Assembly (NCBI GenBank): GCA_051294905.1
Contig: CM119371.1
Location: forward strand, 12,464,001 to 12,528,000
DNA length: 64,000 nucleotides
Reading direction: 5' to 3'
Source of the DNA: Botryllus schlosseri
Taxonomy: Eukaryota
Under the pieces are notes generated by a model. The model had not been told where the DNA came from, ran no database searches, and worked only from the letters and a program-made list of their open reading frames with translations. Made by a program: the position numbers and the translations under genes. Positions 1-59,223 of this stretch are shown here, in pieces. The first letter of the stretch is position 1. Each line of letters starts with the position of its first letter.

Positions 1-1061
1 TCTAAGCTCGAGATTTACGTACTCATGCTTGATTTGTTTCCATAGCCTCGACCTTGGGAATCGCTTGTATGCGTCCAAAGAAAATAAGTCGTGAAATGTG
101 GAAACTGTAGAAACCGTTAGCAATCGCGTACCTGCCGCGAAAAGTTTGTTTAATTGTAACGCCGAGCATTGTGCGCCTACGGCTAGTCAGTTGGCGTTTA
201 GCGCTGATTAAATTATCCTTATACTCGACATGCAAAGTAAATTTGCAGGTATTGGAATGAATTCAGTTGTAGTGTGCGCTCATATTAGGTCTTGAAATGC
301 GGAGACCTCGGCAATCGAAACCGCGATCTGTCTGCGCTCAAAATCGCATTTTATATGAATTAATTAATTAGTGATGATGTGTAGAATATTGATATATCAT
401 CATAGAACCCCGCGCCTAGTTCAACGTTGATGAGTGTTATCTGTGAATATCTGGCAAATATAGTATTCTATTGACATCATAGTTTTCGAAATTTATGTGT
501 AATCGGAATGTTATTTATATCCAAAAAAGTAAGTTATTACATTAATATTTTCAAGTCGCAGCGCTTAAAATCGCATTTTATATTAATTAATTAGTGATGA
601 TACATTTCAAGTTATTCAATACATATTGCTAAATATACATGGAAAACCGGTATTGAAATTCACAAAACAATGAAATTTGCTCATAAATACACACGATGTG
701 GCAGTGGCAGGTGACGTGGCAATGGGCATCCTGTAGGCGTGACAATGGGCGTCATATAGGCGTGGCAATTAGGATGACGTGGCCTTCTGTGATTGGCCGG
801 TCTATAACCCAGCTATGTCTACTACTGGCCAGTATGCTAGATTTTGGCTAATACCAGCGTCTGCACCATCGCGTCATATATAAATGTTCTTACCGACACT
901 TAACGATACTTCTTATGATACTCAAGTAATCCCTGATATCGAGAAACATCGAAAGGCGCATCAGTTTCTCTAGTGATCGGCACCTGGTTCTCAATGTGTA
1001 TTGAATTTGAAATACTAATTTTTGATGCATCATTCAAGTATACATTTTGTCATATTTATAG

Positions 1062-1214
1062 GGTCCGCCGCCTCAGCCGAAGAAGGAAATACTGAACAAA
1101 CTATCTCGAATGCAACAATCAATGTTATAGGTGGGAATCAGATTCATGGAACCGCATCCAATATTGAGCAGACGCCTACGGATGGAAATTTAAGGATCCC
1201 TTATAGCGGGGAAA
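1062..1214 (+). CDS. NLR-like gene, N-terminal exon carrying motif copy 1 (NATINVIGGNQ)
   Basis: Acceptor tttatag|, donor |gtatgt, phase 1/1; open frame SAASAEEGNTEQTISNATINVIGGNQIHG...; phase fits the next exon. Confidence 0.7.
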
Positions 1215-1549
1215 GTATGTTCACAGCAGTGTATCCTCAATTGTGGCGCGGCTACTAGAGATGGTTCGTGGATATATAAGCGTTCATGATTGATTATTGG
1301 CTGCTTTTGGGGTTATGGTTGAGAATGAGGCTAGCTTGGTCGCTGCGAAACTGCCACGAGCCGGAATATCGAGAATTATCAGATATGACTGAAACGTAGA
1401 AGGCAGTGATATCATTACGGTTGGTCCATTAAAAATCATTTTCAATCCCCAGGATGCAGATCCATCAACAATCACAACGTAGACTTACACGCTGGTATAA
1501 AGCAAAAGGGAAGGAATTGTTTAAACTGATATATAATACTTGTTTAAAG

Positions 1550-1657
1550 GTAGAGCCGCATTAGCAGTTGGCGACCACGTGAAGCTGCATTTCGTCAACG
1601 CAAACATTAATGTGATTGGAGGAAATCAGTATAATAATAAATTTTACCAGAGGTCAG
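1550..1657 (+). CDS. NLR-like gene, N-terminal exon carrying motif copy 2 (ALAVGDHVKLHFVNANINVIGGNQYNN)
   Basis: tttaaag| ... cag|gtatgt, 108 nt, phase 1/1; encodes the same 11-aa motif as the previous exon, mostly with synonymous differences. Confidence 0.75.
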
Positions 1658-1891
1658 GTATGTGATACGATATTATGTTACGTCATATCGATGATAACAG
1701 AAATATCTTTATAACTTAGAATTGTGTTCTATATTAGATCGCAGATTGAATGGCAATGCAAATGAAAAGATTTTTGCACGTTTGGCCGAACAACTCGGAA
1801 TTTTATAGCATTATGTTGTGATTTATTATGAAATATCCGGTATAAACGAATCGATATCTCAAACGTAATGATGCCGTCTGTGTTTATTCAG

Positions 1892-2032
1892 ACTCAGATG
1901 AAAATACAGAAGCTGATCATATCGCCGGAGGTGATGGACGCAACGAAACGAAAGTACCCGAAATTGTCCATTCCCCGGTATTCGATCCGAAACACAATTC
2001 TTCGAAGGTCAAGTTAAAAGAAAGAATGACAG
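1892..2032 (+). CDS. NLR-like gene, low-complexity linker exon (DSDENTEADHIAGG...KLKERMT)
   Basis: tttattcag| ... ag|gtatgg, 141 nt, phase 1/1, open frame. Confidence 0.7.
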
Positions 2033-2361
2033 GTATGGATTTTAGTTCAGTTGCAGTTGTGCAACGATCTCCCGACATGAGACGCGGAATAATGCATTCT
2101 CCTAAATACCGTATTGCATTAGTCAAGTGATTGTATAAAAGCAAATTTGATGATAAATAACAATCATGAAGATATTAAGGTATTATTTCGAAAAGTAGTT
2201 GATGGTGCATCAAATAAATTAAATTGTTATCATCATTCTCTGCACCTATTTCATCCACAGGTCTACTAGATCTGTCGCTTGCTTTTTTACAGTCAACAGA
2301 CAATCGATTCACTTCAATAGTTGTTGATGAAAATTCAATATATATACATTCATAATATACT

Positions 2362-2929
2362 TGGGGTTGCATTTAAAGCAAAAATATTTTAAAACAAACA
2401 TGTTTAAAACAAGGCCCGTGTTTGAAACGTGCTTTTCAATATTTTTTTAAAAGCCATGTTACGAATATTTTTTTTGTGACATCATATTTGATTGACATTG
2501 ACAATTGAAAATGTAGGATAAATATACTTCCTCTGACAAAATAGGCTTTCGACCCCTGTAATATTGGGACCAGAAATAATATTTACCAGGACTACATCGT
2601 CATGGAGCATTTACCGGTCGTCGGCAGTCATCATCTTCATAACATTCATTTCGTACCAGTAATCTATAATTCTATATATTCGTAATTTAGCCGTGGATAC
2701 GACTATTTCGAGGGTTCAGCCTTTTCATATAATATACGTCGGCTATACCAGGTGTGAAGCGTCCGTAGGTTCATACTACATGTTTTTTGAAAGTATTTAC
2801 ACACTTATGGTATAATTATCCAACTTGAAAAAATACATTTTTATTGAAATGCCCTCGTTGAAAACACTGTTGAACACAGGTTTTAAGAAAAGTGTTTTAA
2901 ACAACCATTTGATTTAAATGCAGCCCGGT
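2362..2929. mobile_element. MITE with gggttgcatttaaa TIRs (family also at 16819-17226)
   Basis: Terminal inverted repeats; internal similarity to the 16.8-kb copy. Confidence 0.7.
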
Positions 2930-2962
2930 ATATAGTAAAAGGTATTAGTAATCTAATGCCAG

Positions 2963-3072
2963 ATTTTTCTGAGGAGCTTTCCGACCCAATTTCCAGCAGC
3001 AGTAACACCAAAGTCACTTTGAGTGGAAGTAAAAAACCCAGGCTTGAGAAGTACTCAGGTCATTCCGAAAAG
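2963..3072 (+). CDS. NLR-like gene, linker exon (DFSEELSDPISSSSNTKVTLSGSKKPRLEKYSGHSEK)
   Basis: gccag| acceptor, phase 1. Donor is either |gtaatc after 3072 (phase 0, needing a further small exon) or |gtcatt after 3058 (phase 1, joining 4378 directly). Confidence 0.55.
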
Positions 3073-4377
3073 GTAATCTAATCGAAGGGTCGAATAATTT
3101 AATTAATCGAAGGTGGCCACTGGCCATATTCTGTCTGGCAAGACACTTATGCGTGACCACCGAAAAATAAATCTTGATACTACAAATAATTGCAATTTTT
3201 TATGTATGCAAGTATATATAATATGCATGGTTCTTTCTGTTATATTATATATGTGCGATACAGCATGTCCCAACGCGTAGGCAATATGTCCATTGTCCAA
3301 CCTATAACCGCTATCAGAACTAAGAAAAGATGAAAACATTCAACTCGCACTAGATTGCTTGAACAAACCTGACCGTAATTCAAACCGCTTACTGCAACGC
3401 ACCTGGTCGTAATTCACAATTTGTTTGGCTATCAAAATTATCGCCAACCGATAAGGCCAAGTACAACCACATTTGGGTAGGATTCTGCTCATGCATGTCA
3501 AGTGTCCCAGACCACGGTCGGATGGATTGAAACCAAGACAGTGTAATCAGTTCTTTCAAAGCCGTCGACATAAGAGGTTTACGATGTAAAGCCCTCGTCG
3601 CCAATATTTCTACACATTCAATCAGAAAATATTATTTAACTTAATTTCCATCAATCCAATTTGTGATGTAGAAATTGTATATACGCTCTTATGACAGAAA
3701 TATCGGAATAAAGTGAATCAAAACAGTTAAGCTACTTGTTACCTCAATTCCTACCACAATGAAATAGAATTCGCAATGAAATAATATATTCATATCGAAA
3801 CGAACCCGAATATTTTCTGCTGACACTCGTCGAGGGTAATCTTCACAGCATCTTCGAATTGGAAGAACATTGTATGTATAACAACGATCGTATAACCAAA
3901 TATAACGTCACCGGCATGAATATTTGAATATTTGAGGGAAAGAGATCGCTTATGCTCAATTTAGTATGCTAGATGGTACACAAACTCCTCCTATTGTTAC
4001 AAACTAACTTGGCGTATTTTGACAAAAGTCGACTAAAATGCACATATATGAAAGTGAAAACGCCTTCTCCTGACGACACGAAATGTGTCGTCTCGATAAC
4101 TTTCCGCACTAACAGAATTATGCAACAAATGTTTGTCAATGGCACAATTCATGGTCGTTGCCTCGTCTAATTTAATCTTCAGGGCCGGAGTGAAGAGTTA
4201 CCGTGTGTTAATGAATGTAGGGAGATGCTATTTTATGCGGTCTTGTAAATGAGCAAAACCTTCAAAACTATGTGGGCTGATAACAAATTGGTTCCAATAC
4301 CTCCAATTAAGATGTTACCACTATATTCGACAGCTATTTTCGCAGTTGATCAGCGAATAAAATTAATTTTTATTTAG

Positions 4378-5784
4378 GAAAATATCTTGCTAAATTCACG
4401 GAGACCCTCAAACGTCTCTCGTGGAACAATGTACAGGGTAAAGTCCTAGAATCGTACGAAGATTTATCGGAACCAGACTCTGAGTTTTATCCGCAATTGA
4501 AAACAGGATTTAAATTATACAAAGGAGAATATTTACCACAAGAAGGATTCAGTGCCCACGGCAACCCAAAATCAGGACGTTATATAGACTACAAAGCTTG
4601 TCTAAGTCGCATCCAAGAAAAATATGCTGGGCCTTGTGCCATCATCGGACAACCGGGAAGTGGTAAAACCATCATGATGAAAAGATTAGCAAAGAAACTT
4701 ATCATTGCAAATAATCTCCACACTCAAAAAACTGCTATATGGAAGAAATTTGTTAAGGTATTTCGCAATGAAGCCAAACAATATAATATCGTCATGCACA
4801 TGAACATCAGAGATATTCCTGATCAGGAGAACGTTACTTTGGCTAACGTTATATTTAGCCCTAACGTCACCAAGTTATCAGTTAATGAGCTAGGATATGG
4901 TCTTAAGGCAATACTGGATGGGGTGATTAAAATTATTATGTTCTTCGATGGATTGGATCAAGCTACATGGGATCCGATATACGATAGAAAAATTGGTCCA
5001 TGGGAGGTGTCGAACACACGTACGATATTTGGTAATATACTGGCAGGAAATCTTTTACCCGACATTTCTATTATCATATCATCGAGGGAGCATTCAGTAG
5101 CCCGTCTGTCCATTGAGATGCGACCGGAGTTTATTGTGGCTTTGGTGGGATTCAGTGAAGGGGAAGCGGAAAAGATGTATTGCGAGTTGATGGGTCAAAA
5201 TTCAGAAAAGGATTGGCATGAAATGAGGTTATCCAACCCCGCGATGCACTATATGTGCCTGACACCATTGTTTCTTGTATTTTACATGATCACAAGAAAA
5301 CGAGCCCCATCGCATCCTCCAAATTGTGCATCCGGAGTGATGGTCACTATAATACAGATTTTCTTGGAATGTGAGAATACACGAAACATCAACAATATCA
5401 TTGATGTAAACGACGTCATCAGCAAATTGAAGGAAATGGCATTCAATGGTACCATGAGCCAACAGGTATCATTCACCAACGAAGACCTTTCCAAATATCG
5501 CCTTGCGTACAAGGATATCAGTGATATTATCATTAAAGTTCCTGGATTGACGATTCTAGGTCAGAAAATGCTTGCTGGGATGTATAGATACTTTTTCAGT
5601 CATCAGACTCTTCAAGAAGTTTTAGCGGCACTTTTCGTGGTGAGCATGAAACTGGATGATTTCAAGCAAATCGTGGATCGCGAATTCAACAAACCCTACT
5701 GGGCGGTTGTCCGCAATTTCACGAGTGGTATTCTAAAAAACGAAAGTGTTAGATCTGATATCAGTTCTGCAATTCTTAAGCCAG
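4378..5784 (+). CDS. NACHT (STAND NTPase) exon of the NLR-like gene
   Basis: Walker A GQPGSGKT, Walker B IIMFFDGLDQ, sensor-1 IIISSR, HD1 LTPLF, winged-helix FFSHQTLQEVLAA; acceptor tttttatttag|, donor ccag|gttggt, phase 1/1. Confidence 0.92.
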
Positions 5785-6537
5785 GTTGGTATTTCATTGT
5801 ACTCAAAATGTCAATATGTTGGTATACGGCTGGATATGCCCCTTGTTCCCATCCAGGGGAAAAATTCCCGAAATGTAGTAATTTTAGTGCGAAGAATCTG
5901 CCTATATTTAATAGGAGAAAGTATACATGGACTGATCAAAGTTTTCATATTTTGTCACAGAACCGTAAGGTATGAGACTAGATCCGACGTTGAAATCTAC
6001 CCGAGGGGTCCACTTGATCAAAATGGCTCAGATCAAGACATGGGGTCAGTTATTCAAAAAATAACAGTCCCGCGCTGGTTACGTGGTGAAAATCTATATG
6101 TAAATTGCGTACAACAAGATATCCAAAAGACGCATGCGATTCACTTTTCTGCAATACTGCAGAGAGTTGCAGAAAATGTGGTAATTTCACCGTGAACATC
6201 CGACTACACTAATACCTCCCGGGGTCCACGAGACACTTTTTTAGGAATGCGTAGCACCTTCAAAATTATCACGACATTTCGGATTTCTGGAATATATAAA
6301 TCTTCAGACAACCTAATATACGAACCAAACGCAAAAGTTGCCCAAAAATTATTCGGTAATCAACATCAAGTATAGTTTTTGGTGCATAATATTCAATTTG
6401 AAATTTCAGTCACTATATTTCTTGGTTTTATTGTGCGTAAACACACCCTCGAACAAAATACGCATAATTTCAACGAAATAAGTCGAATTGTGTTCGTAAT
6501 ACATCGCTTGGGGTTATTGGGATGCTTTCGTCTAGGG

Positions 6538-7826
6538 CAGTGGTTCCCAACCTTTTACGACTCATCGCCCCCTTGTGAAGCTCCACACCGATCATCGCCC
6601 CCCTAAAACGTTGGTCTTCGTCCCCATAGGGTGATAAACCCCCTCAGACCCCCTGTCAGCCAGTGGGCTTTTTTCGCTACATATCAGCTATACCCTGCCT
6701 GTTTCATGTACTGTTTGGTGAGTCACCGTATTTCGCCTAAACGCGCGAAGTGCCCCAAATTTATATAATTCATGTTTGAATCGGTCAATATGGTCGGGAA
6801 TTGCATATATATTGCTATCAATTTTTTCATCCTCTTTCTGCTCACGTAATCAGATTTACCGGTAGAGCTGAGTGTGGTGTGTTGGAAAAGTTAGAACACC
6901 CCTAAATAATAATTAAACATCTCCGGGCGTATACCCGTTGGCAGGAACGAAGCAACACTTTGGTCTTGGGCTCCCATTGGGTGATAAACCGACCCCCATC
7001 ACGTTGTTCGCTTTGGCCACGAAATTAGGTGGAATCGTTGTTATATTGACTACGTTGCATGTTGCTATCTCGTGACCTCCTATATCTGCTATGTCAGAAG
7101 ATATGGAACTCGTCAAAACGTACCAAACGAAAAGACGCATATGATTTCAAATTGGTAAATAATATTTTCTTTGCGGGATCGCATTTGTCCTGTAGGGTTA
7201 AGGTCACCGGGGCAGGAACATTCGACGCCAGCCATTGAGGCACCTATGGACAATTAAACATATATGTATAGGTATCGAAGTTTTCGGTCAGCACGAGGGC
7301 ATTCCTTTTCGGCCAACGTCTTCTCGCCGCTGATCGTTCTGGCACACTTCTCGGAGTCGCATGATACATGGCCTCTAACTTCATATGTCTTGGTGCGTCG
7401 TGGCGCAGTAATGGCTGACACCGAAGTCTCCCATTTCCATAAATCCTGCGTAATTTTGTTGGGGGACTGGTATCCCAAAGTCAAGATATATGAAAATATG
7501 AAATAGTGACCAGCGCGAAAATTTTTTGAAAAAGTTGCATGAATTATTAAGAAATTACTCTACAATTTATGTTAATTAACGAAATAATTTAGGACTCCTT
7601 CGAGTTTGGGCCCCCCACCCCCAATTGGGGGGGTTTGGGGTGCGGTAGTTACGGTCCCGACTCCAATATAGCCGTCTTAACGCGCCATCGCCCCCCTATC
7701 GCCCCCTTCGTTGTTTTCGCCCCCTTCGTCCGTTTTCGCCCCCCTATCGCCCCTTCGTTATTTTCGCCCCCCTAAACCGCCAAATCGCCCCCTGGGGGGC
7801 GATATCGCCCACGTTGGGAACCACTG
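6538..7826. mobile_element. hAT (Buster/Charlie-type) non-autonomous element
   Basis: TIR cagtggttcccaac / gttgggaaccactg; perfect 8-bp TSD gtctaggg; tcgccccc subterminal repeats; interior is similar in inverted orientation to ~62995-63900. Confidence 0.9.
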
Positions 7827-8778
7827 GTCTAGGGCTTTTCAATCGACCGGTGCATTGTATGCATTTCGGCGCTGACCATTTGCAAGCCAGAACACATCAA
7901 GGCACGGGAAGGTATATTCAATCCAAGTCAAGATGATCATCAATGTCTGCCGAACTTTAGACATTGATATTTTCAGATACCGAAATAGTCAGCCCGAATA
8001 GCCAAGTTTGTTTGATGTAGGCTATTCGAGGCGTTTGTCGAATACCGTGGTTATTTACCTCTGACCAATTTCTTCATTTTTATTCCGTAACTGCCGACTT
8101 GTAGCATGTCCCACTTCTAAGACACCGCTTACATGGAAGATATTGTATAGCCAAGTTATTGTCATCATATGCCCCGCGCGATACAAACGTGACCCGCTGA
8201 AAAAAATAATGCTCCTGGTGTTAAATTGCGAAGTGATAATGATATTTTTGTTTGATCTAGCAAGTGCGAGCGATTCCAATATCTGTCGAGTAACGGCAAT
8301 CATTACCTTCACAAAACAAAATTCATGCGAGGCCGATAGTATTGACTAAATTAATTGTCTAAAATATATTCGCACACTGATTTTTCGAAACACTGGGTTG
8401 TACTTATCTAGGCTCGTTGTGGATCGCATAACAGCGTTTGTGAATCAGATGTATGAAGGATAGTGATTAAATTACATGCAGGGGTAATAAGGTTTGAAGG
8501 CCAAGACCTGCGTTTTCTTATGGGATTCGTGATATTAGACAGAGTTGCTTCAGAAGTAATGCAATCAAACATACCTGAGCTGGTAACAAACATCAGCTAC
8601 ATTTTTTACATTGACATGTAAATCCAACGTGTTTGTGATTCATTTATAAAAAATTTCAAGGTGTCGTCTGATCAATTTTCATCAATTGTTTGGCAACTAG
8701 TGGACTACACGATCCGACGAAATCACTTATGGATTTTCACTCAAATTACTTCTCCAAAAACCGCTAGGTCATACAAAC

Positions 8779-9088
8779 TAGGGTTACCATAAGTCCTCTC
8801 TTAAGAGGACTTGTATTTTTTTACTCTATTGAGAGTGTCATAGGAGGACGCCTAAATGTCCTCTTCTTTTTAGAATTTTAGTTTAGATATAGGAAATCAG
8901 CGGTCAAGTAACGGTCCGACGGGATTTTCCGGACTTGAGCCAGAAAAACGGAGTCAACCAACGGAAAATCTCATAAAATGCCAGTAATTCGGGATTTGAG
9001 CCTGACAGAGGACGAGAAAAATTTACAATTTTTCGAGATTTTACTCCAGTATTCTAAGTCTAAAGATTCCCAAATTATGGTAACCCTA
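8779..9088. mobile_element. hAT-like MITE relic with tagggttaccataa TIRs
   Basis: 14-bp TIRs; no clear TSD. Confidence 0.55.
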
Positions 9089-9556
9089 CTATAAAGTCAC
9101 TTGGAAACATGAATGACCTCTGGCGCACGAATGCAATATATTTTGAACCGAGCTTTAGAACTGTTTCATTTTGTATAAGAAGTTTTGGACATTCACTTTG
9201 TAATACGGTGACCCAAGCTAACAATAACCCACACCCCGATTACGCCTGAGCTTGATGTAATCGTGATTTATGGCATTTTAATCATTTATCACGACGGTCG
9301 ATTTCATGAGAAAGAAATAGCGAAGTAATCATAACCGATTGCTTTGCAAACAAAAATTACTCAGCTGTTTGATTTTACCAGGACTTTGGTGTGATCTGAG
9401 CGGTGCGATATATCTTATGAACAATGGAAACGTCGGATTTGTGAAAGTATTTTCTTATTATTGCACCACAATAAGTAACTGCGTATAAATATTTTATCCG
9501 GGCGTACTCAGTAGCTTTTCGATCTTCACTGTGCTAGTAGGATTTGGAGTTTAGAC

Positions 9557-10657
9557 CACAGGTGGGCAAACTACGGCCCGCGGGCCGCATGTGGCCCGCA
9601 ACATGGTCCTGTGCGGCCCGCGAGAGTCTAAAGAAACTTTCTAAAAATATTGATAAAATGCGCACTAAAAATCGAAATAATGCAGGGATTTGATTAAACT
9701 TTTTCTTAGTATATTTCACCATGATAATTCAGTGGTTCTGAAACTGGGGGCACCCCCTTGGGTGCGTGAAATTATCTGAAGGGGGCGTGAAGCTAAGCTC
9801 AACTGAAAAAATTTTCGCGCGATTTACATACAATTCATAGTTATTGCTCTGTATTTTGTATTATTCTCACATTTTTAAATCTCTTATCCACAGTCGTAAC
9901 CTTCCATGTTATCAAACTATTCATTAGGTTTGCTAGCATCCTGGCTGCGTTTTGTGATATGACGATGAGGGGTGCGCGAAATCTTTCACCATCGTAAGGG
10001 GGGGGGGGGCGGGCGTGTCCTAAAAAGTTTGAGAACCACCGTTCCAAGGTTAATAATTTCGCTGCGCGACAGCCCAATCTCAAGGCCCACCAAGTTTAAA
10101 ACGTTTCAACTGCTAAACATCACAGAAATCCTAAACGATATTGACTTAATTCGGATCGCGAGTGAGATTGTAGATTGGCTACTCCTGTTTTAATTATTTC
10201 AGGGATGTGCTTATAAAAAACGATTCGCTCGGATCTTAGAGGTAGATTCGTTCTGTGTATGCGTATAATTGGAGTATTATTATTTTATATACACCTGCGT
10301 GTTTGAAGCAAACATATATGGTCATGATGCTGTCAGCATTGCGTGTTCTGAAATTTAGGCAAAGGTGGAATCAGTAAATCTATGAACAGATCGTTGCTCA
10401 CATATTTAAATTTCAATCCTGTTCTAAGAATCGGAATAACCGACTTTCATCTCTATAGTTTTGACAAGTTGGTTATTGAGGTCGGCCAGCCTATGAAATC
10501 TCGCGACTATGCTTTTGACGCGTGTAAGATATCACCAAAGCAATGTTTTTTAAAATAGGCACATATACTATCTCCATGTCCTCACTTTATAGTGCTGCCC
10601 GCGAATGGATTCAGATGTTGAATGCGGCCCGCGAGCTCAAAAGTTTGCCCACCCCTG
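9557..10657. mobile_element. hAT (Charlie-type) MITE, same family as 33940-35184
   Basis: TIR ca(c)aggtgggcaaact / agtttgcccacccctg; TSD gtttagac; gcggcccg subterminal motifs; contains a smaller cagtggttct MITE at ~9730-10042. Confidence 0.88.
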
Positions 10658-11207
10658 GTTTAGACAATCACTACTCTCCTATGCTTCAGTCACTACTACC
10701 ATATATGATTAGCTTGCACGAGTACGATAAGCCTCTCGCATTGGCTACTCCTCGCTATGATCTACATAAGCGGAGTCTTGAAAAAGTATAGCATTGGGAC
10801 GTGTTTCTGGTTGGTAGATATGGAATCGTAACGAGGAATTTCACCCGGGTGAAAATGAATATTGCAGTCGAAAAACACCATGAATACCACAACAAACACC
10901 AACAAGTCTGTCGCACCCTTCATGGATTGAAATGTTTTAGAATCGCGCATTTCCATATTATCGCAATTGTTCATAATGACGTATGGTTACTCTTACAAAG
11001 TGAACTCCCATTGGTGTTGCTGCTATGCGACGTGTATGTGAGTCGCAGAAATGCTCCGATTTAAGATGTGAAATTTTTGTGAACTTTACATTCAGCGGGC
11101 CATCACAACTAGATTTGGCCGACCAGCGACAATAATTTTTGGTCAACGTTTCATCGCCGCCGATTACTTTGACACGGCACCGCTCGTGGTACACCCATAC
11201 ACTAAAG

Positions 11208-12468
11208 CAGTGCTCTTCAACCTTTTTCGACGTGGTACACCCTTTTAACGTTTGCTCAAAACTCGTACACCCCTGTTCATTAGGGGTCTTCAAAAATGAC
11301 TTTTTTTCTCAAATTGTACTGGCTACTTGATAAAATTGTTAGGTTACCTAACTTAAGCCTACACACCAAATTTGGTTCAATTCCTACCAGTAGCCACATT
11401 GCTACGGGAGAAGAAAGTTTCTATTTATCATATAAAAATAAATAACGAAAAATTTCAAATTATTCTGTTCACCCCATGAAAGTATTAGGTTGTCTATAAA
11501 AACGATGTTCTTCAAATTTGGTTCAATTCCAACCAGTAGAAGCGGAGTTATTGCCGTCAAAAATTTGGATTTGAATAAAATAGTATTTTGTCGCAGTGTA
11601 TATATTCGCAGCTAGTTAGGCCGCCCGCCACGAAAATTGGAATTTATTTCGTGTCAGCCCAAAAACAGCATGACATTACGAACGATAATCAACCTAAATG
11701 TAACAGTATTGGGGAGAGATTAGGTAAAGCTACTGCTGCAGAAGCGGTAATTCAGATCAGCGATGATAACAGGCGCACCAGCCTACTGCGTATCAGGCCT
11801 GCCCCACGCCACACACAGTCGATAGTAGCACATTAGCTGCAAGAGACGTCAGTAACCTCAGATCGTATGCCGCTATACACAGTCTATTGTCGCTAATTCG
11901 CATCACAAATAACAAAATACTAAATTGCAAATGTCTGGCGAAATATTGGACATAAAATCGGCATTTTAAAACGAAAGGGTTTTGATTTCAACGTGGAAGC
12001 TGTTTCGACCCTGGCCGGCTACGTCACTTCATTTTTGTGCATTGCGGTATTTATTAACGTAGGGTAGGAAGTACCGATTCAAGAAGTCTGAGCTATCGCG
12101 GCGGTTTCCTCAAAAATCATTAAAAGACAAATGACTAGCTGGACACATGTTTGTTAACTGCATACTTTCCAACACCAAACGGAACCATTGGTCTGTTGCC
12201 GGCGGCTAAATGAATAGGAGAAATATTTGCTTATGACATCACAATCAAGCGCTGTACAGTATTACACTTAAGGTAACATCGTACCTATTGCTCATTAACC
12301 TGTGCGCCAACCTGTATAGTGACCCATAAACCTGCCTTTGTGATAGCTAGCCATCGGCCCATTGTAATTCGGATCTGGTACACCCCAGTACACCCCATCC
12401 GAGTGGTACACCCTTTGCAAATTCTGGTACACCCCAGGGTGTACGGCAACCCCGGTTGAAGAGCACTG
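11208..12468. mobile_element. hAT MITE with cagtgctcttcaacc TIRs
   Basis: Perfect TIRs; TSD cactaaag; gtacacc repeats; related ends at 51342 and 55992/56165. Confidence 0.9.
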
Positions 12469-13034
12469 CACTAAAGCACCCCAACGATGCTTCAAGGTGT
12501 GAAACCAAATGAGACAAACGTGGGACAAATCATATCATGAATTCACACCAATTTATCCATACAAAGGTCGGCACATTTTCACGATCAAGCTATATTGTAG
12601 TAGCGACTTTTCAGCGCGTCTCGCTGGTTGGCTGAAGTAGGCCCTATCCAACACGGTAACCTGGGATATGTACAAACTATCTATACTATAGGCAATCTCG
12701 CAAATAATTTTTGGGGGAATTAAAAAATACTAAATACATAATTACAGATCGGTCTGGTGTCGTGGCGACCCAAAATTATGTCTTTGCGGCCGATACTTTT
12801 TAACACCCTGCTATAACCATTCGCCAAGACCAGTGTTATGGTCACTGATTTACTGCGACTACTTATCTCATGTTTGATTACGAAATAATTAAATATGCTG
12901 ATCATTGACCACGTATATATCACACTTAGATACAATACTCCTGTGTGACGGCAAACATTTGACTGTGAAATGTTGAAGTCTTTTTTACCACACCCTCTCT
13001 GACGCTAATCTTTATTTTATGTATATTGATACAG

Positions 13035-13342
13035 ATGATTTACATCTTAAAGCGGAATATCTCATGCAAAATTTGAAATATCAACTGAGGCAAGATATAA
13101 CACCAGCTCAAAAATTGGACATTTTCACATCGTTGAAAGAAGCTGCCACGCTCGAAATACTAGAAAGTTACGCACAAGATCTTGACTTCTCGAATTATCC
13201 TCTTACACCCGCAATACTGAATACGCTGTGCTCGGTGATTGGAAATCTCGGGAGAGTGAAATCCTTATCGTTTAATAATTGCGGCATCGATGACGATTTG
13301 TTGAGCGTTCTAGCTTCTGAGACGAAGAGACAGTTTATCGAG
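13035..13342 (+). CDS. NLR-like gene, HD2-end / first LRR exon
   Basis: atacag| phase 1 matches the NACHT exon end; LDFSNYPLTP and VKSLSFNNCGIDDD are RI-type LRR segments; donor gag|gtaaaa, phase 0. Confidence 0.85.
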
Positions 13343-14759
13343 GTAAAATTGATTTCATCGTCAGTTCAGTAGATTTAGTACTGGTGCGACTTTATAACAT
13401 ATGTTCCGAGTAGATACAATCTCGCTATACTGTCGTAGTTTATTTGAAGGAATATATCTTGGATCTATTGGTTCAACTACCAGTACTGCCACGATTATTT
13501 GCCGCCATAAATTGGACATCTTCCTTGAATGTAGCGGAGATTAGTCACTGTATCCTAGGGTTGCCATACGTCCAGAATCTTCCCGTTCAAACTGCGTCCG
13601 AGGGTAAATTATAAAATATGCCGGAAGGTCCGGAATGGTGAGGACTTGAAATAGGATCCATTTTTTTCATAAATCAATAAAAACGAGATTATTTTTGTGA
13701 AGATTTATGCTATTTGAAATTGTTTTTCGCGCTAGGCGCGATTTAGTGTCGCATTCATTGATTCCTGGTATGTGAACCAAACCCTTGCAAAACATGCAAT
13801 CGAAAATAAATGAATTAACCATCATTTACTGAAATAGGTCTAATTGTCATCACAATTATAGGAGAATGGTATATTCCTAGAGTGGGGTAAACCGTTTAGA
13901 TGCTTTAGTCAAATGTAGCGGCTGCAAACCTGGGGTCGTTTGTATTTATTATAGGATTCGCGAAGATGTTGAGCGTAATCAGCGTCCAGAATAAGCCATC
14001 AGTAAGTCCAGGCAGAGGTGCTCACCGTTTTACAGTAATCATCTTATCAAATTTTGAGCTGGGCCACAGGACATCTTCAAATTGGAAATGAAGTCGCGAA
14101 TATAAAAGGTTGAAAAGCAACGGGTGTGCAACCAGTTGGAGCGGAGCAACATTTAGGCTAATAAATAATTTTATACGCGTAACATGACATGACTTTACGA
14201 CGTAGGATTACGTTCCTTGTATTTTCGAAGTCATAAACCTCCACCACCTCCCCCGTAAACGATGATCATGTGGGCGGAGTGAGGATCAATATTTTAGAGT
14301 TATATACGGAAAAACCAATAGTATAGCCATATTTCATTCATAAAATTAACGACCAGATGCAAATAGAAATCAGATGTATATAGTAAGCCCCCACCCAGAA
14401 GCTGCATCAATTACCCTATGGTGGACTGAAGATCTTTATTCGGACGGAAGTGGACTGAAAAGAAGTTGTTTCGGTCCTGGTTACTACACACAACCACTCA
14501 AATGCACCGACCCAACATTATATTGACTCTTGATCCGGAACGTAACCACCTCTGTTCGATAGACACAGCTTTGCCAATGTGACGTCATATTGATAAACAC
14601 TGTGTCATGCCCAGGGTTGTCATCGACATGGACCCAAAAATAAGGACAGTCCAAAAATTAGATTAGCATCAAAAGGCGTTGTTGTACATACTTTGTTTGT
14701 ATTTATAGGAGCTGCGGTATATCACATTCAATTCATCTTATTGCTAATAATTTCGTCAT

Positions 14760-15265
14760 TTTAATTCACCGCAAGACTGCGAAACAATGAAAGATAGGAC
14801 GGTGTCGGAACGACTTGTAGTAGTTCCGAAATCGAACCCCCATCTGGCCTAAGCGATGTAAAAAGGAAGCCTTAACACTGAATGAAAAGTAAAAGAAGAT
14901 AATATAACTATGAAAGGACAGATGACAAAAAGTGGGATATGTCGGAAGGCGAGATCGATTTGTCAGGTCCGGTAAACTAGAGGGCTGACTAAGATTCATT
15001 CAGTATAAATTGGTGGTATTTCGACTTGAATGTGGACAGGACATACTCGATGACTGTCGGATAGCCGGCGAGACACTGTTCCACAAATTGTGTCCGGCAT
15101 ATTTGATGGAGCGAAGATCTTTTTTTGCCTACGATATGGTAGTTGGACGACGTGGACGCGCGTCTGTCGTGCATCTTTGATACCGAGGTGAAGTTATTGA
15201 AGTTTTCGGGGCAGTGGCACTGATACATAAACCTGGCAATTTCTAGTTTCCGCATATCTTTTATG
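14760..15265 (-). mobile_element. 5'-truncated LINE (CR1/L2-like) 3' end
   Basis: Frameshifted peptide KDMRKLEIARFMY...SNYHI...KYAGHNLWNS, typical of the C-terminus of non-LTR ORF2, followed by a 3' UTR. Confidence 0.6.
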
Positions 15266-16818
15266 TTTAGACCGAATCATTATAGCAGTGATTTGCTGGG
15301 CACACATTCCGGTCAGTTTGGGGCCCTGGCTGTGATACGGAGAACATGAAGCTGAGGTTTTGCAGAGGCTTCAGAGCGCTAACACTGGCAGCCTCCCCAA
15401 CAGATGATGCCATATTGTTATTTTGATCGGAATACATTTTTCCAGAAACAACCTGCTCCAAGGACTACTTGTTATTAGAAAGTTCCTCGTGGATCTCACG
15501 ACAACTGAGGTCTAGGTTTACCGTGACTGGTGGCTGGGATTTGACTGTCATTTCAATCTTACGTCCACTTTGACAGGCTTGCCGAGCGCTAAATTTAACA
15601 ATTAATGGATAGCTGTATACCGATTACGAGAATACAAAGTTAATACTGCTCATGGCCCTTGAGCCCCCCACCCCCAAAAAATCACCCTCAAATTTTGCAT
15701 TGGGCTGGAATTTGACTTGGTGATGTAACGATGCTGTTTGGCTCTTTCTCTCGAGCTGCACTCTCGTTTTACCAGACAAAATTGTTGTCTCACAATGGAA
15801 AATACGGGATGGTTTTTGGGGTTCCAGGACCACGAGCAGAGTCAAATTTATATTTTCGTAATCAGCGCAGTAGCAGCTTTCCATTATTACCAATTTATTA
15901 ATGTTAGCGCTCGGCAAGCCGGTCAGAAATGGCCGTAAAATTGCCTTTGGCCAAATGAAAAGTATGATGTAAAAACCCAAATACAATGAGCCGTTCAATC
16001 TCGCTGTGTCCACACCGTTTATGACAATAAGATCTCACCACTTAGAAGTCAGATCCTGTGGTGTGTACACGCCGGGCGTTCCTTTTATTTCTGATGAGAG
16101 AGAGAGAGATATGATATTCTTTTTCGCCTGCACCATCGAGATGCTTTGGGGACGGAGTTGCGATACGGCCCCATGAGGTCATCTAGTCTGCGCCCCCGTT
16201 TTTTCTTCTCCATGCTATCCGTGATTGCTGAGCGCCAAGCAGGATAGCAGCGGATACCATTTTTCGAGTCTTCGGTATGACCCGGCCGGGGATCGAAGCC
16301 ACGACCTACCGCTCGAGAAGCCGGAGGCATAACCCAGGGATATATAGAACTCCGGGATGGCTGACTTCATTTTGGCCTTTACCTAAGTAGGTCCAGAAAG
16401 TTACCTGCAATCTGCCTCGAAATATCCACTTTTCTGCAAACTAGCGATACAGCTGTTTCTAGAATAACGATCCTCAACCTTTTGCGGAATAGTCAGTGAG
16501 TAAGCTAGACATTCTTCCCTTATCACAACCTTACTGCTGTATAGCCAACCTCGTAAAGTATGACACTGTTGTATAGCCAACCAAGTAAACTATGACAACT
16601 CTGATTTTCAATAAATCATGAATGTGTTTAATTTCTACACATCATATAATTTGCATCAGGCCATAAATAACAGGGTGAATAACGAATATTATCAGCGTCT
16701 TCTACCTATTTACAAGCCATTGTCGGAAACCTTGCAGCTGGGAAGGGGGGGAGGGGGGGTTAATAGGATTGAATAAATTAACCGTTTCAATTCGCGTTAA
16801 TCGACAATTACCATGGAG

Positions 16819-17226
16819 TATAGGGTTGCATTTAAAACAAACATGTTTAAAACCAGGCCCTTGTATAAAACATAATTTTTTCAAGCCATGACGTCAAGAA
16901 TATTCAATAGTGACGTCATATTGGATTGACATTGACAATTGAAAATATAGTGTAAATATAGCTCCTTTGACGAAATATCTGTGCTATTGCTGTTGAACCG
17001 ACTATTTTGAGGGTTCCAGCCATCCCATATCGATATTCGTCGGCTATATCGGGTGGTAATCGTCCGTAGGCTCATACAACACGTATTTTGGAAAGTATTT
17101 ACACAATTATGGCATAATTTTACAACTTAAAAAGAATTTTTTTCAAAAGGCCTTTGTTTAAAACACTGTTTAAAGCATGTTTTAAACATGGTGTTTCAAA
17201 CACCGTTTGTTTTAAATGCACCCCTA
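16819..17226. mobile_element. MITE (tagggttgcatttaaaacaaac TIR) inside the P-like element
   Basis: TIRs; ccatggag present on both flanks. Confidence 0.8.
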
Positions 17227-17436
17227 CCATGGAGCATTTCCAATAACGAAAAGAAAGCACGGCCTGTAAGGACTCGAAATTGTGATAGCAGCATTGTCAG
17301 CTTCTGTGTCACTAAATGAAAGTTGAATGCACCCCTAACATGGAGCATTTCCAATAACGAAAAGATAGCACGGCCTGTAAGGACTCGAAATTGTGATAGC
17401 AGCATTGTCAGCTTCTGTGTCAATCAATGAAAGTTG
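17215..17436. repeat. Tandem duplication of ~111 bp
   Basis: aatgcacccctac...aatgaaagttg repeated twice, nearly identical. Confidence 0.9.
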
Positions 17437-18346
17437 ATCAAGAAATCAACACACCATTGATACTTCTCTTCAGGTTCAAATGTAGCCAGGCTAGCAGTTT
17501 GGTACATATCATTATCAATTTAAGAAGCATTCGGTAGACCCAGTTAATGAATTCAGCTGATATTTTGTTCACCGAGATATAGTTTCATGACCGCAGTGAA
17601 GAAATTACCACCATGGCTTAACGGTACATCACGAATGGGCCTCCTGAAGCATTTCATGCCATTTATCAGTTAAGAAATATTCAGTATCATTGTCTTGCAG
17701 ATTTTCCGATAGAGCGATAGATGATTCCATGTCAAAAAATCATCTCGGTGAGGAGGCACGAGATCCAAATATTCAGATCGTGGCCATCTTTGCCAAGATT
17801 TCAATGGAATGTGCCCAGTATAATATATCAGGATATCCACCGTTGACGTGATGCAAATGCTGGAACATCGCGTTTGTTTTTCCGGAATCTGCAACAAAAA
17901 TGAACAAATGATGTATTTAGAGACACAAATTAACATTAAGAATCTATATAGATGTATGCAGAGTTGGTCGGTAATGAAGAACTTCTACTTCATTGCAGTA
18001 CTCAAGTAGGTGTTGCCTATTTTCGAAGATACATCTTGTAATTTTGAAGCAGCCATCTCCAAACTTAAGTACCTTGCAGGCATTTCACTTTCTACAGCTA
18101 CTTGAGGAAGTTTGAATACCAGTACGCCCGGGAATACAACTGTTACTTGAGTAGCAATGCAGACTACTTTAACCACATCAGGATTAATGTAAATCGCTCG
18201 CGTATCACTAGAATCAGCCAAACTTACCTTGGGCCGACTGAGGAGAGGTCCATGCGTTATTGCGACGATTTGACTAAACCTTGCAAATTGAAAGCAATCT
18301 TCAGAGTTTTCTCTTCCTCCATCGTACAGGCCTATAGCCTATAGGC

Positions 18347-19159
18347 CAGGGGTCACCAACACGCGGCCCGCGAGATCATTTTTTGCGGCCCGCGACTTGA
18401 TTTGAGATTTTGTAAGAAAGCTAAGAAAACATTTTGAAATGTTGAAATTGACGTTCAATGGCCCAAACACTCCCAAGAGCAAGACTCTTAGAAAACGGTT
18501 TAGGACAGTGGCTCAGAAACCCCCCTTCTGGGGGCGCGAAAGTATCTGAAGGGGTCGTGAAGCTGCGGTAAACTGAAAAAAATTTCGCGCTTCGCGCGAT
18601 TTACCTCGGATTTGTGGTTACATTTATTGCTCTGCTGTATATAATCCGGAATTCATATTATAGAATTCTCTCACTAACTTTCATAACCTTCCATGCCACC
18701 AAACCACCTGTTGGGATTGTTAGTATTATGGATGCATTTTTTGATATGATGATAAGGGGCGTGAAATTTTTCAGTATCATGAAGGGGGCATGTCTAAACA
18801 GGTTTAAGAACCACTGGCTCAGGGCTTCCCCATACGATCAAGCTTTAAGTGGAGATGGTCTTTCAGCTAGCATTGTATCTCGCTAGCCCCCAAAAGCGTT
18901 TCCAGGTATCTTGCACAGCTCAGAGTATGAAATTGAAATTGATGACAGTGATCTTTGTTGTCTTTTTATTCTTTTGATAACATATTACTTCTTTTGTGGT
19001 CACTATACCCTTCGCCTATGTTCGGTAGCACAACGTTGTACTGACATAGAGTTTTAAAACGTGGTTGCCTACTTTATATCGATATTAAATTCATGCGGCC
19101 GGCGGCCGCTTGGAAATTTGAAAAGTGGCCCGCGACCCGTTTTGAGTTGGCGACCCCTG
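18347..19159. mobile_element. hAT Charlie-type MITE containing a smaller MITE (18506-18816)
   Basis: TIR caggggtcaccaac / gttggcgacccctg; TSD ctataggc. Confidence 0.88.
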
Positions 19160-20649
19160 CTATAGGCTATAAGTGTTTATATGGTAAAGACAGTCCGTAT
19201 CTCAGGGTCGTATCGTGTCCTGACGATTGTGTTGGCTTATCCATTCAAGGGAGTAGGCATCTTCATGGCTTCAGTAAGAGCAAATGGTCAACAAATGCTG
19301 TGGCCATATACTGGGAGTCAGCCATTGACAGTTCACAACAGTGCACTTCTGTTGAAGTATAATTCCAGTACTGTAGCATTGAGGTGCCGTTCATTAACAA
19401 ACATATGCCTGCCTTGTTTTACCAGACATGTAACTGATGAATAGTATCTGTAACAAGAGATTGGATTCAACAGTTGTTATGGACACTTACAACTGCAACG
19501 ACCTTGACGTGTTGCGTTTGTATTGGATTCAAATGTTTGGTTATCGTCAATTGAAATGTCTCTCGAATCTTGCACACCGGTGGTGTACTCAGTGGCTCCA
19601 ATTCTTACTAGGAATAATCCAGCAATGATCTGGAATACCGGTAAGCCTGCAATACCAGCACTACCTGCATATTCACATATTAATCTATAGTACAAGATCT
19701 TAACTGTCCCTCCTAACGGTCGCCTTCATAGTTGACACGGCACAGTGTAAATGTACACTTGTACTTAAACAATGTACACTGTACAGCCTTGGATGGTGAC
19801 ATACATTCGCATAACATAGCGGTAAATGAAAAACATACCGCAAGGCGTAATCAAAATCATACTGCGGATATCAATGTTAACGTTGGAAATTAATCTACAT
19901 TTTGTTATCTTCTCACGATTATCAGCGCAGCAAAACATGTTACATAAGATACTACAGAAGCAGAGATATTCCGAAGGCGAGTAAATGACCGTACCGGTAT
20001 ACCGGTAAATTGCTGCTGAAGGAATAGGGCTAATACCGCAAAGTTTCAGACTACCTGAACATCTTATAACCTAGTTAACCTTTAGCTTTATATAATAACA
20101 TAAACATGGATATTATATGCCTCTACCGGTCTCAAAAACTTAAAATTACACACAGATGAAGCGGCTGACCGGAACGTGCATCAAAACTGAATGCGCGAAT
20201 CTGGACCCACTTAGGTAATACCGCGATGACGCAATTGACGCAGTCAGCCATCCCGGAGTTCTATATATCCCTGGCATAACCATTACACTATCTCGCTCAG
20301 TGTGTCATTATCTGATGTCATTAAATCTACCCTTAAAATCATGATTTTAGAATATTGTGGAACACAGATACCAGAGGAAAAAGATAGAAGTTCTGTAGTT
20401 GTTGAAAATAAGACAAAAGACGGACGCAAGTCGAAAATAAGGACATTTCTTAGAAACAAGGACGGTATGGCAACCCTGGTCATACCTCATTTTAAAAATC
20501 CGCTAGTGGGCAATGAAGAGTGTCTAGAATTTGCTTCACAAAAATATGGTAACCCTACTCTTTCCCAATTATTTTTTTAATTTGACGATCCGTTCATAGA
20601 ACACATGAAATGCTTTCCCGCCAGATTATAGTTATAAAGAGGGTAATCT

Positions 20650-25374: not shown

Positions 25375-25706
25375 ATCTCTAACTTATGGATGAAGGTTCA
25401 GCTCCATCCATTCGATCCCGATGCATGGCGAGAAACCTTTCAAAATATGAAATGCACCGTCTCCCGTTGCATTGTTGCTCCGGAAACACCAGAGGTAAAG
25501 TTAAATAAATATTCAACTAACTTGACGCCACTAAATCAGCTAGTCCGCAATTACAGTGTGGGAAAATAGACGTGAAAAAATGGATCGAAGCTGCCAAAAT
25601 CGCAGAAATGGGGCCAATTAAGGAAGTTCTTTTGTCTTCCGCTGATGGTATTCCACTCCAAATTGGAGACATCCGACTACTTAATGCAATACAATATCGC
25701 TGGAAG
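25375..25706 (+). CDS. Repeat cassette 1: exon A 25375-25494 + exon B 25557-25706
   Basis: ttttcag| 120 nt |gtaaag; 62-nt intron with ctaac branch-like site; tacag| 150 nt |gtgaat; ISNLWMKVQLHPFD.../CGKIDVKKWIEAAK... Confidence 0.8.
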
Positions 25707-59079: not shown

Positions 59080-59223
59080 GTGAATAGAATGAAATATTTG
59101 AACAGTAAAAATTGCAGGTTTGTGATTGATATTTTATACTGGCAATAATGCCATCGCTCTGGCCAGGGCCGTAACTGCCGATACCTAATTAGGGTTCGGG
59201 CCAAAATTATTGTGTGATCACAC

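Follow-up and report, generated by a model that had tools for sequence, protein, structure and literature searches.

The window analysed here (64,000 nucleotides of Botryllus schlosseri, contig CM119371.1, positions 12,464,001 to 12,528,000 of the forward strand) carries close to its start a predicted multi-exon gene of the NLR type, in which two short exons (A and B), each bearing one copy of a conserved module, are followed by a linker exon (C), a NACHT exon and further exons (Table 1). All four junctions are in phase 1 and A-B-C-NACHT therefore stays in frame; the evidence for the splicing of exons A and B to the NACHT exon consists of this frame compatibility, of linkage statistics and of conservation in paralogues. 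We hold this predicted gene order, jointly with the identity of the module family described below, to be highly probable.

Table 1. Features of the module-bearing NLR gene (positions within the window)
Feature	Position	Strand	Description
Exon A	1062-1214	+	153 nt, phase 1-1; AG 1060-1061, GT 1215-1216; frame open
Module A	codons 1064-1141	+	SAASAEEGNTEQTISNATINVIGGNQ; row 1 of alignment A1; core 1109-1141
Exon B	1550-1657	+	108 nt, phase 1-1; AG 1548-1549, GT 1658-1659
Module B	codons 1552-1629	+	RAALAVGDHVKLHFVNANINVIGGNQ; row 2 of alignment A1; core 1597-1629
Exon C	1892-2032	+	141 nt, phase 1-1; AG 1890-1891, GT 2033-2034
NACHT exon	4378-5784	+	P-loop GQPGSGKT, NACHT and start of NOD2-type winged helix; phase 1 in and out
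Next coding exon	13035-13342	+	AG 13033-13034, GT 13343-13344; frame continuous with 5784

The peptides of exon A (TISNATINVIGGNQIHG) and exon B (HFVNANINVIGGNQYNN) contain the two N-x-x-INVIGGNQ motifs that a preliminary description of this DNA had assigned to two exon-like units, and our recount over the 11 core codons likewise gave 6 codons that differ synonymously and a single amino-acid replacement (T/N), corresponding by the Nei-Gojobori procedure to 6.5 synonymous differences over 7.3 sites and 1.5 nonsynonymous ones over 25.7 sites. The back-translated INVIGGNQ pattern occurs at exactly 2 places in the 495-Mb genome (both in the window) and its reversed control at 0, which argues against a chance occurrence of the motif. 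The flanks of the two cores, previously considered unrelated, are so on the 3' side only: the 15 codons preceding each core belong to a family-wide module, since A and B (with 3 of 15 residues in common) each fit the family consensus xA.LAEGD.V.Q.F, and both exons begin at the same module position and in the same phase. The tail of exon A (1142-1214) is kept in close paralogues only. Homologues of exon A were found at three paralogous loci (71-75% DNA identity), in the comparison of which conservation ends ~57 bp 5' of the acceptor, while exon B has one homologue with identical splice sites in a paralogue at C1:11.44 Mb (FVNANVNVVAGNQFNY) and a second one at locus L051. At a compact paralogous locus (C1:17.089 Mb), exons A, B and C all fall inside 900 bp.

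Exon C encodes a charged, proline-containing linker that carries no module, gave no match to Pfam and is kept at 74-79% in the paralogous loci L036, L039 and L051. The placement of the motif upstream of a NACHT domain is borne out by the exon that follows, in frame with A, B and C: its open reading frame (4350-5972), in which the Walker A motif GQPGSGKT is present, matches Pfam NACHT with 51 bits (cut-off 26.7, E 2e-13), and tblastn against Styela clava NLRs aligns positions 4377-5762 at 33% identity over 477 aa (E 1e-82). The next coding exon encodes the post-NACHT helical region and a first LRR-like stretch, and matches (tblastn, E 1e-6) residues 724-813 of Styela P0001, in its pre-LRR region; no Pfam LRR match was obtained among the 24 downstream ORFs tested.

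Towards the 5' end, no in-frame ATG lies within exon A or B, and the search for exon 1 recovered no conserved block upstream of exon A in the window or in loci L045, L047 and L051 (within 1.4 kb in the three paralogues), nor any upstream tblastn match to Styela and Clavelina N-termini. A coding start at the in-frame ATG at position 1025, ahead of exon A, was rejected, as this Met is not kept in the paralogues, whose frames moreover run through the polypyrimidine/AG acceptor. We mapped fractions (6-13% of each) of four bulk RNA runs with the same species label (X3, X5, X6 and X7) on positions 1-20000 of the window; in these fractions the depth was zero on exons B and C, on the NACHT exon past position 4670 and on the fifth exon, and 0.1-0.34x in the exon A bin (X3 only). 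Approximately 96-100% of the mapped reads continue into unlike sequence (with no GT-AG joint), which points to their origin in dispersed repeats. The closest paralogue (88% NACHT identity, L007/L036/L040) has exon C, and no A or B homologue was detected in the 9.6 kb examined upstream of it. That paralogue, as well as the fact that neither a start codon nor RNA read support was found, would be in keeping with exons A and B standing outside the NLR protein, be it as untranslated 5' exons, as remnants of a co-duplicated neighbour or as pseudo-exons. We consider this to be very improbable in view of the coding constraint and of the genomic placement of the module, to which we now turn.

The conserved unit is larger than first reported: it consists of an exon-borne module of 26-34 aa, xA.LAEGD.V.Q.F.N[AST][TN][VI]NV[VI][AG]G[DN]Q. 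Rather than being a feature of a single gene, the motif marks an N-terminal exon shared by a very large set of paralogous NLRs: when the 495-Mb genome was queried with a 34-aa module, 128 candidates were scored and 126 additional copies obtained at E<=1, of which 65 have E<0.01, and the number of 126 is a lower bound, as the single-module query missed the two divergent modules of the window itself. Every one of the 126 copies lies in an open frame (39-140 aa) devoid of internal stops. In an alignment (A1) of 23 distinct module peptides from 30 loci (from which L068, a chance match, and L049, L053, L061, L063 and L065 were left out), positions A5, N20, V21, G24 and Q26 are invariant and L4, Q12 and N16 are kept in at least 90% of the sequences; since A1 was gathered with a pattern that required the core, part of the core invariance is due to ascertainment. 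The family-wide alignment also substantiates the earlier claim that the motif is conserved at the protein level, with pS 0.71 and pN 0.15 in the core (ratio 0.21, synonymous sites being saturated), and pN/pS values of 0.45 in the 5' part of the module and 0.75 in the 3' tail. A count made with a degenerate DNA pattern (85 vs 7 in the control) was discarded because two kinds of dispersed repeat other than the module had swollen it (by eye, ~23 copies with an in-frame TGA and ~14 that read LNINVRAGDQ right after a stop).

The composition of the module (26 columns, 598 residues) is marked by 0 Pro and 0 Trp, 31% N+Q+G, 42% V+I+L+A+F and 2% K+R. AF2, run for the monomer on the 23-sequence alignment, gave a pLDDT of 63.6 and a pTM of 0.16 with no secondary structure, and the module is accordingly predicted to have no autonomous fold as a monomer; a complex prediction of four 34-aa module copies, in which the alignment was unused, ended in 'no answer' (score of 0.02, mark of 0.32) and speaks neither for nor against an assembly. 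The analogy with the two pseudo-repeats of HET-s, drawn previously, applies to the window gene, where the module is indeed duplicated, and to few of its relatives, forming a small subfamily: most paralogues have one module, and the 126 copies include five further pairs.

The genomic placement of these copies was compared with a set of 175 listed NACHT exons. A listed NACHT exon lies downstream on the same strand and at <=45 kb in 100 of the 126 modules, and within 15 kb in 75 of them (median 8.9 kb), while the orientation controls gave 4 (upstream, same strand) and 1 and 0 (opposite strand). Of the remaining 26 modules, four are on C8:3.86-4.01 Mb; at one apparently orphan module cluster a divergent, NACHT-like ORF with a P-loop lies 2.4 kb downstream. 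The module thus constitutes a short motif (26-34 aa) that is N-terminal to the NTPase of an NLR (100/126), in a gene whose predicted structure begins, for the present purpose, with exon A. This strand- and side-specific arrangement (100 vs 4, 1 and 0), the open frame of all 126 copies, the retention of amino acids in spite of saturated synonymous change, the shared phase at four junctions and the splice sites kept in paralogues together speak against exons A and B being foreign to the NLR protein. The nearest protein relatives are the NLRs of ascidians (tunicates), and among the module-bearing paralogues the NACHT domains are only 30-35% identical. We are confident that the module, which exons A and B each carry once, makes up the N-terminal part of a NACHT(-LRR) family that is massively expanded, lineage-specific and devoid of death-fold domains.

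With regard to the latter, the absence of CARD, PYD and Death domains reported earlier holds for all window ORFs tested. Upstream, none was found in 86 ORFs of the + strand (>=45 aa, a threshold which exons in shorter ORFs would escape) from the first 1061 bases of the window and the 20 kb that precede it, these ORFs yielding no domain other than transposon domains. On the genome scale, 0 of 116 Death matches fall within 60 kb of any of the 128 modules, and the 5 CARD matches are all more than 1 Mb away from modules on the same contigs (coordinates compared by eye). As far as their sequences indicate, the module-bearing NLRs thus appear not to be of the death-fold (NLRC/NLRP/NLRD) type, the N-terminal CARD, PYD or Death domain that defines it being absent from the regions searched.

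The motif had been likened to a RHIM, the core tetrad of which is (I/V)-Q-(I/V/L/C)-G. The module resembles it in having N-x-[ST] a few residues ahead of a hydrophobic-polar-hydrophobic...G core that is followed by N/Q, in its unstructured flanks and in its occasional duplication; a true divergent RHIM, homologous to those of RIPK1, RIPK3, TRIF and ZBP1 and of the amphioxus RHIM-NACHT protein, would account for these features. Nevertheless, the label did not survive the profile search: Pfam RHIM (PF12721) gave no match at E<=10 to the two window peptides or to any of the 23 modules, and its 3 genome-wide matches (15.9-17.7 bits, all under the cut-off of 20) are at no module and lie in short, stop-flanked and stop-ridden frames, as expected of chance. 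In all 23 aligned modules the core reads [IV]-N-V-[IV]-[AG]-G, with one residue more than the RHIM tetrad and N in place of Q, and a PDB profile search with the module retrieved 0 chains at E<=10, hence no RHIM chain. According to a RHIM survey, tunicates appear to be without RHIMs (PMC4262963). The same source provides an architectural precedent in the RHIM-NACHT protein BF82280 of the amphioxus Branchiostoma floridae (Kajava, Klopffleisch, Chen, Hofmann 2014, PMC4262963), by which an animal NLR with a RHIM replacing the death-fold domain is, in principle, already known. Descent from a RHIM is, on balance, very hard to credit.

The HET-s, sigma and PP-type motifs are represented in Pfam, which gave no match to the 23 modules at E<=10 in any of its other families except for DinI (2 modules, E 0.055), a match that we took as chance. 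The ESM Atlas contained no usable look-alike of the exon A peptide, and no description of the module was found in the open-access full-text literature searched. Another possibility is that of a SUMO-interaction-type or generic hydrophobic beta-strand motif, given that VNVV and INVI fit the SUMO-interaction consensus psi-x-psi-psi; it would leave unexplained why N20, G24 and Q26 are invariant and why N16 and the 5' half (LAEGD.V.Q.F) are conserved, the core adjoins neither an acidic nor a Ser run, and we judge it very improbable.

A protein that carries the same motif and could act as a partner, the existence of which had been envisaged, was not found by the profile, Styela and Death/CARD proximity searches. 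Among 1.84 billion representatives, the profile matched 14 at E<=0.001: 12 of these are exon-like ORFs of only 40-160 aa in which the module recurs, the other 2 belong to unrelated repeat proteins, and no full-length protein or additional domain is among them; nor was there a shorter Styela protein that shares the N-terminal region of the Styela NLRs. The pairing of receptor and effector by a common motif is hence without an example here.

The closest named proteins are four uncharacterised NLRs of Styela clava (P0001-P0004: LOC120335211, LOC120335076, LOC120333023 and LOC120341408; 33-34% identity over NACHT), which combine NACHT and LRR and likewise have no N-terminal Pfam domain. They have an N-terminal NIVNIQGSNINEVHG stretch and 1-3 look-alike copies of N-I-[HN]-I-[IM]-G-G, situated at least 165-200 residues ahead of the P-loop; the likeness to the module is visual, in that the best local alignments of the A1 profile fall there at a non-significant 0-1 bits, and the LAEGD.V.Q.F half is not recognisable. 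The amphioxus BF82280 and other invertebrate RHIM proteins share with the window gene a short, unstructured, beta-prone and sometimes duplicated N-terminal motif in an animal NLR-type protein, found in the usual place of the death-fold domain and in an invertebrate chordate whose repertoire of innate-immune genes is expanded. They differ in that the tunicate module fails the RHIM profile, has another core and is carried by more than 100 paralogues. The NLR-associated amyloid signalling motifs of fungi and bacteria (NWD2/HET-S HRAM, sigma, PP, BASS) are similar in length (~20-40 aa), in their position N-terminal to a NACHT or NB-ARC NTPase, in a composition rich in hydrophobic residues as well as N, Q and G, in an unfolded monomer and, in some members, in the presence of two pseudo-repeats. 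What defines those motifs, however, is that they recur on an effector, usually one encoded next door (none was found for the module), and the module, which has no Pfam match, is exon-encoded in a metazoan multi-exon gene. The cryptic RHIMs of Drosophila (PGRP-LC/LE and Imd; PMC13506858) offer a parallel for a divergent, lineage-specific innate-immune motif that the RHIM profile misses; their carriers are PGRP receptors and a death-domain adaptor rather than NLRs, and for Imd amyloid formation is reported experimentally (PMC13506858), while the tunicate module is known from its sequence alone.

In our best reading, the module would be a homotypic signalling motif, specific to the lineage, at the N-terminus of the receptors of an expanded family of tunicate NLRs, where it would serve in place of CARD, PYD or Death. 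In a mechanism modelled on the amyloid signalling motifs of fungal and bacterial NLRs and on the amphioxus RHIM-NACHT proteins, the module would be unfolded as a monomer, and the ligand-driven oligomerisation of NACHT would gather several N-termini, the proline-free, V/I/N/Q/G-rich segments of which might then stack into a cross-beta, amyloid-like assembly (conceivably with V.Q.F as one strand, N-x-T as an arc, VNVV as a second strand and G-D-Q as a further arc). Such an assembly could recruit or template a downstream protein with a compatible segment, and the two modules of the window subfamily would provide two rungs of the stack. We put forward this homotypic-signalling mechanism, cross-beta stacking included, tentatively, and the amyloid-like nature of the module, suggested by analogy with the amphioxus RHIM-NACHT protein and the fungal NLR motifs, as a possibility about which considerable doubt is warranted. 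The explanation as a whole, the amyloid step, partner and splicing of which we infer, may be correct, and we would stop short of calling it probable. Its strongest form, namely that the module represents a new family, specific to tunicates, of signalling motifs of amyloid (prion-like) type and the missing N-terminal effector of ascidian NLRs in more than 100 receptors, with NACHT oligomers nucleating a VNVVAGDQ-type cross-beta stack that templates a partner and with tandem modules acting as a HET-s-like two-rung seed within one chain, seems to us rather unlikely.

The main competing explanation is that of a short linear motif of non-amyloid type, which would dock an adaptor by beta-strand addition, or act as an autoinhibitory latch on its own NACHT/LRR, without templated polymerisation. 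Conservation, N-terminal position and the want of an autonomous fold support this and the amyloid reading equally, and the fact that no second protein family with the module was found fits a motif-domain contact better than a motif-motif one, even if the 26 modules without a listed NACHT exon were excluded from the partner search. On the other hand, ~26 conserved residues with five invariant and three near-invariant positions are long for a linear motif, the proline-free V/I/N/Q/G composition and its alternating pattern are those of beta-arch-forming segments, and position and architecture parallel the known NLR amyloid motifs. We regard a linear motif as a serious contender that nonetheless falls short of being probable.

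In published surveys, the NLRs of ascidians are described as NACHT-LRR or NACHT-only proteins with no N-terminal effector domain (PMC11508797) and no tunicate RHIM is reported (PMC4262963). With its invariant key positions, the purifying selection acting upon it and its location 5' of NACHT, the module is a concrete candidate for the signalling end of these receptors. If templated beta-stacking were true, it would represent a third independent sequence solution, after the RHIM and the fungal/bacterial motifs, and one present in a chordate; the amyloid signalling of NLRs would then reach beyond fungi, bacteria and amphioxus into a chordate lineage for which a lack of RHIMs is reported. If the module is not amyloid, it would still constitute a new N-terminal element by which a very large immune gene family may be classified, and a peptide of ~30 aa that would still offer a handle on the downstream pathway.

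Within the 495-Mb animal assembly (G000) the window was placed at C1:12,464,001-12,528,000 (C1 being a contig), and both peptides of the preliminary description were recovered in place on the + strand, in two exon-like units (exons A and B) whose first base is codon base 2 and whose last base is codon base 1 (i.e. phase 1-1). Since the phases of the predicted junctions agree (the acceptor at 4376-4377 gives the NACHT exon phase 1 and the donor directly follows 5784), the order A-B-C-NACHT-exon 5 constitutes one continuous frame, the closest named relatives being uncharacterised Styela clava NLRs (33-34% identity), together with one Clavelina lepadiformis NLR, from which relationships the animal is taken to be a tunicate. 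Over the 11 core codons exons A and B differ, as described, by six synonymous differences and one residue change (T/N), which by Nei-Gojobori counting amounts to 6.5 synonymous differences in 7.3 sites and 1.5 nonsynonymous ones in 25.7 sites; genome-wide, the back-translated INVIGGNQ pattern matches at these two places only (reversed control pattern: 0).

Predicted exons and NACHT-bearing frame of the receptor gene (window positions)
Feature	Position	Strand	Remarks
Exon A	1062-1214	+	153 nt, AG/GT-bounded exon-like unit, phase 1-1
Exon B	1550-1657	+	108 nt, AG/GT-bounded exon-like unit, phase 1-1
Exon C	1892-2032	+	phase 1-1; charged linker containing proline
NACHT-bearing long ORF	4350-5972	+	Pfam NACHT E 2e-13, 51 bits
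Exon 5 (next exon after NACHT)	13035-13342	+	predicted

Downstream of these exons lies a DNA transposon remnant, an ORF with a MULE transposase domain (30615-31076, + strand; Pfam E 9.2e-08). Two exon-like ORF types, with peptides beginning IENIDALYHFQISNLW and CGKIDVKKWIEAAKIAE and no Pfam match, recur on the + strand (25342-25874, 27799-28256, 31751-32050, 57789-58010, 58930-59145); they could encode the C-terminal repeats of the NLR, or else form a tandem family of their own. Over window positions 1-20000 the RNA reads leave the receptor gene uncovered, and considerable depth (about 17-42x; bulk RNA runs X3 and X5) is confined to ~16096-16366. There the reads continue past either edge into unlike sequence, and the RNA is attributed to a dispersed, expressed, SINE-like repeat; similar ORF text recurs at 20239-20577.

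A degenerate core pattern (two mismatches allowed) yielded 85 matches genome-wide against 7 for the control, of which some 37 (counted by eye) belong to two dispersed repeats and are no modules, while in the remaining ones similarity reaches well beyond the core. The 23 distinct peptides obtained from 30 excised loci align without gaps over 34 residues (consensus xAxLAEGDxVxQxFxNATVNVVAGDQ; A5, N20, V21, G24 and Q26 invariant; L4, Q12 and N16 kept in at least 90%), and an AG acceptor immediately precedes every copy in these loci, always at the same module position. The conserved unit thus comprises some 26 residues, followed by a tail that varies. The flanks, previously held to be unrelated, do share just 3 of 15 residues on the 5' side when exons A and B are compared directly, yet these 5' flanks are related to each other through the family consensus.

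Conservation of the motif at the protein level was borne out across the 23 sequences, in which synonymous sites are saturated (pS 0.71-0.78) and pN/pS rises from 0.21 in the core to 0.45 in the 5' half and 0.75 in the 3' tail. The invariance of the core is partly an effect of ascertainment, because the set was gathered through the core pattern; even so, matches to the whole-module profile from other assemblies retain VNVVAGDQ (7 of 12) or close variants (the other 5). These matches come from an exhaustive search of 1.84 billion representatives at E<=0.001, in which 12 of the 14 hits were short ORFs (40-160 aa) resembling the same exon with intron read-through, the other two being unrelated repeat proteins, and no annotated full-length protein carried the module. 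The module therefore seems confined to Botryllus schlosseri and close relatives. In the Styela NLRs no Pfam domain is present at the N-terminus; they bear an N-terminal NIVNIQGSNINEVHG stretch and, well before the P-loop, 1-3 copies of TN[VI]EI[NK][ED]SNI[HN]I[IM]GG. Of five proteins searched with the module profile, two have their best local alignments precisely on this motif (three sites, 0-1 bits). This is a resemblance, homology not being demonstrated, and no shorter protein sharing the Styela N-terminal region was found.

With one 34-aa module (from locus L066) as protein query we found 126 copies at E<=1 (65 at E<0.01), a lower bound, given that the window's own two modules are too divergent to be caught. 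Four genome searches, each scoring the best 80-108 of 196-224 first-look candidates, together gave at least 175 distinct NACHT exons; among those listed, one lies downstream on the same strand within 45 kb of 100 of the 126 modules (within 15 kb for 75; median distance 8.9 kb), in comparison to 4 upstream on the same strand, 1 downstream on the opposite strand and 0 upstream on the opposite strand (all within 45 kb). The number of linked modules climbed as the NACHT list grew (72, 95 and then 100), and one seemingly orphan module cluster is followed at 2.4 kb by a divergent P-loop NACHT-like ORF; 26 modules have no such exon among those listed. Four of these 26, on the + strand and spaced 35-56 kb apart (G000:C8:3863738, 3917728, 3973816 and 4008646), make C8:3.86-4.01 Mb the first region in which to seek other architectures or a partner. 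Because modules precede NACHT exons as little as 30-35% identical to that of the window, the module exceeds most of the receptor in both age and conservation. NACHT exons form a very large family (the 108th match of one query still has E 6e-123), with many of those listed clustering in two regions of C1 (0.2-4.5 Mb; 39.4-41.6 Mb).

Genes with paired modules are exceptional: among the 126 copies, five further pairs were found. The A-B-C layout recurs in three paralogues on C1 (17.089, 11.44 and 11.61 Mb), with splice sites kept and conservative substitutions (e.g. exon B reads FVNANVNVVAGNQFNY); the locus closest to the window gene in NACHT sequence (88%) shows exon C, and no A/B homologue in the 9.6 kb upstream examined. 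The duplicated motif is real and more general than first reported; its designation as a RHIM fails: the Pfam RHIM profile matches none of the 23 module peptides at E<=10 and produced, across the whole genome, three sub-threshold matches only, all in stop-ridden frames, in agreement with PMC4262963, according to which tunicates appear to lack RHIMs. No other Pfam family matched the modules except DinI (E 0.055, two members), which we took as chance, and no PDB chain matched the module profile at E<=10.

No death-fold exon was detected near the motif. Among 86 + strand ORFs (at least 45 aa) over ~21 kb upstream of exon A, the domains detected were one reverse transcriptase and a fragment of a hAT element; each of 128 modules lies more than 60 kb from all 116 genomic Death matches, and the CARD matches of the genome, just five, are all far from modules. 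The sequence 5-16 kb before the window (upstream pieces L005:2284-4728 and L004:4264-4548) includes an open frame of 815 aa in which RVT_1 (reverse transcriptase) matches at E 5.6e-08 and, upstream of it, the hAT dimerisation-domain fragment. Most Death matches form inverted pairs ~10 kb apart with identical scores (e.g. G000:C4:20656892(+)/20667428(-)), which suggests a repeated palindromic unit or a mobile element carrying a Death-like exon.

The 26 module columns (598 residues) contain neither proline nor tryptophan, are rich in N+Q+G (31%) and V/I/L/A/F (42%) and poor in K+R (2%), and AlphaFold2 predicted no secondary structure from the alignment (pLDDT 63.6, pTM 0.16). In composition, length, N-terminal position, occasional duplication, and the way its hydrophobic residues alternate with polar ones (G/N where turns are presumed), the module is similar to NLR-associated amyloid signalling motifs and RHIMs, and a short N-terminal motif on a NACHT protein has an animal precedent in an amphioxus RHIM-NACHT protein (PMC4262963). 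By this analogy, the module may act in the manner of NLR amyloid motifs or RHIMs, a reasonable hypothesis, albeit one to which we give rather low odds; the hallmark of amyloid signalling systems is the presence of the same motif on an effector, and no such effector was found for the module. A non-amyloid docking or latch motif is given similar, slightly higher odds, and the remaining probability falls to minor rivals and unknowns.

Taken together, a very large NACHT family without death-fold domains has as its predicted 5' coding element a conserved, translated-looking, unfolded and proline-free module of ~26 aa, which would act as the homotypic signalling end of the receptor. The gene in the window belongs to a known kind of NLR, in which a short N-terminal signalling motif, here a candidate one, stands where other NLRs carry a death-fold domain.
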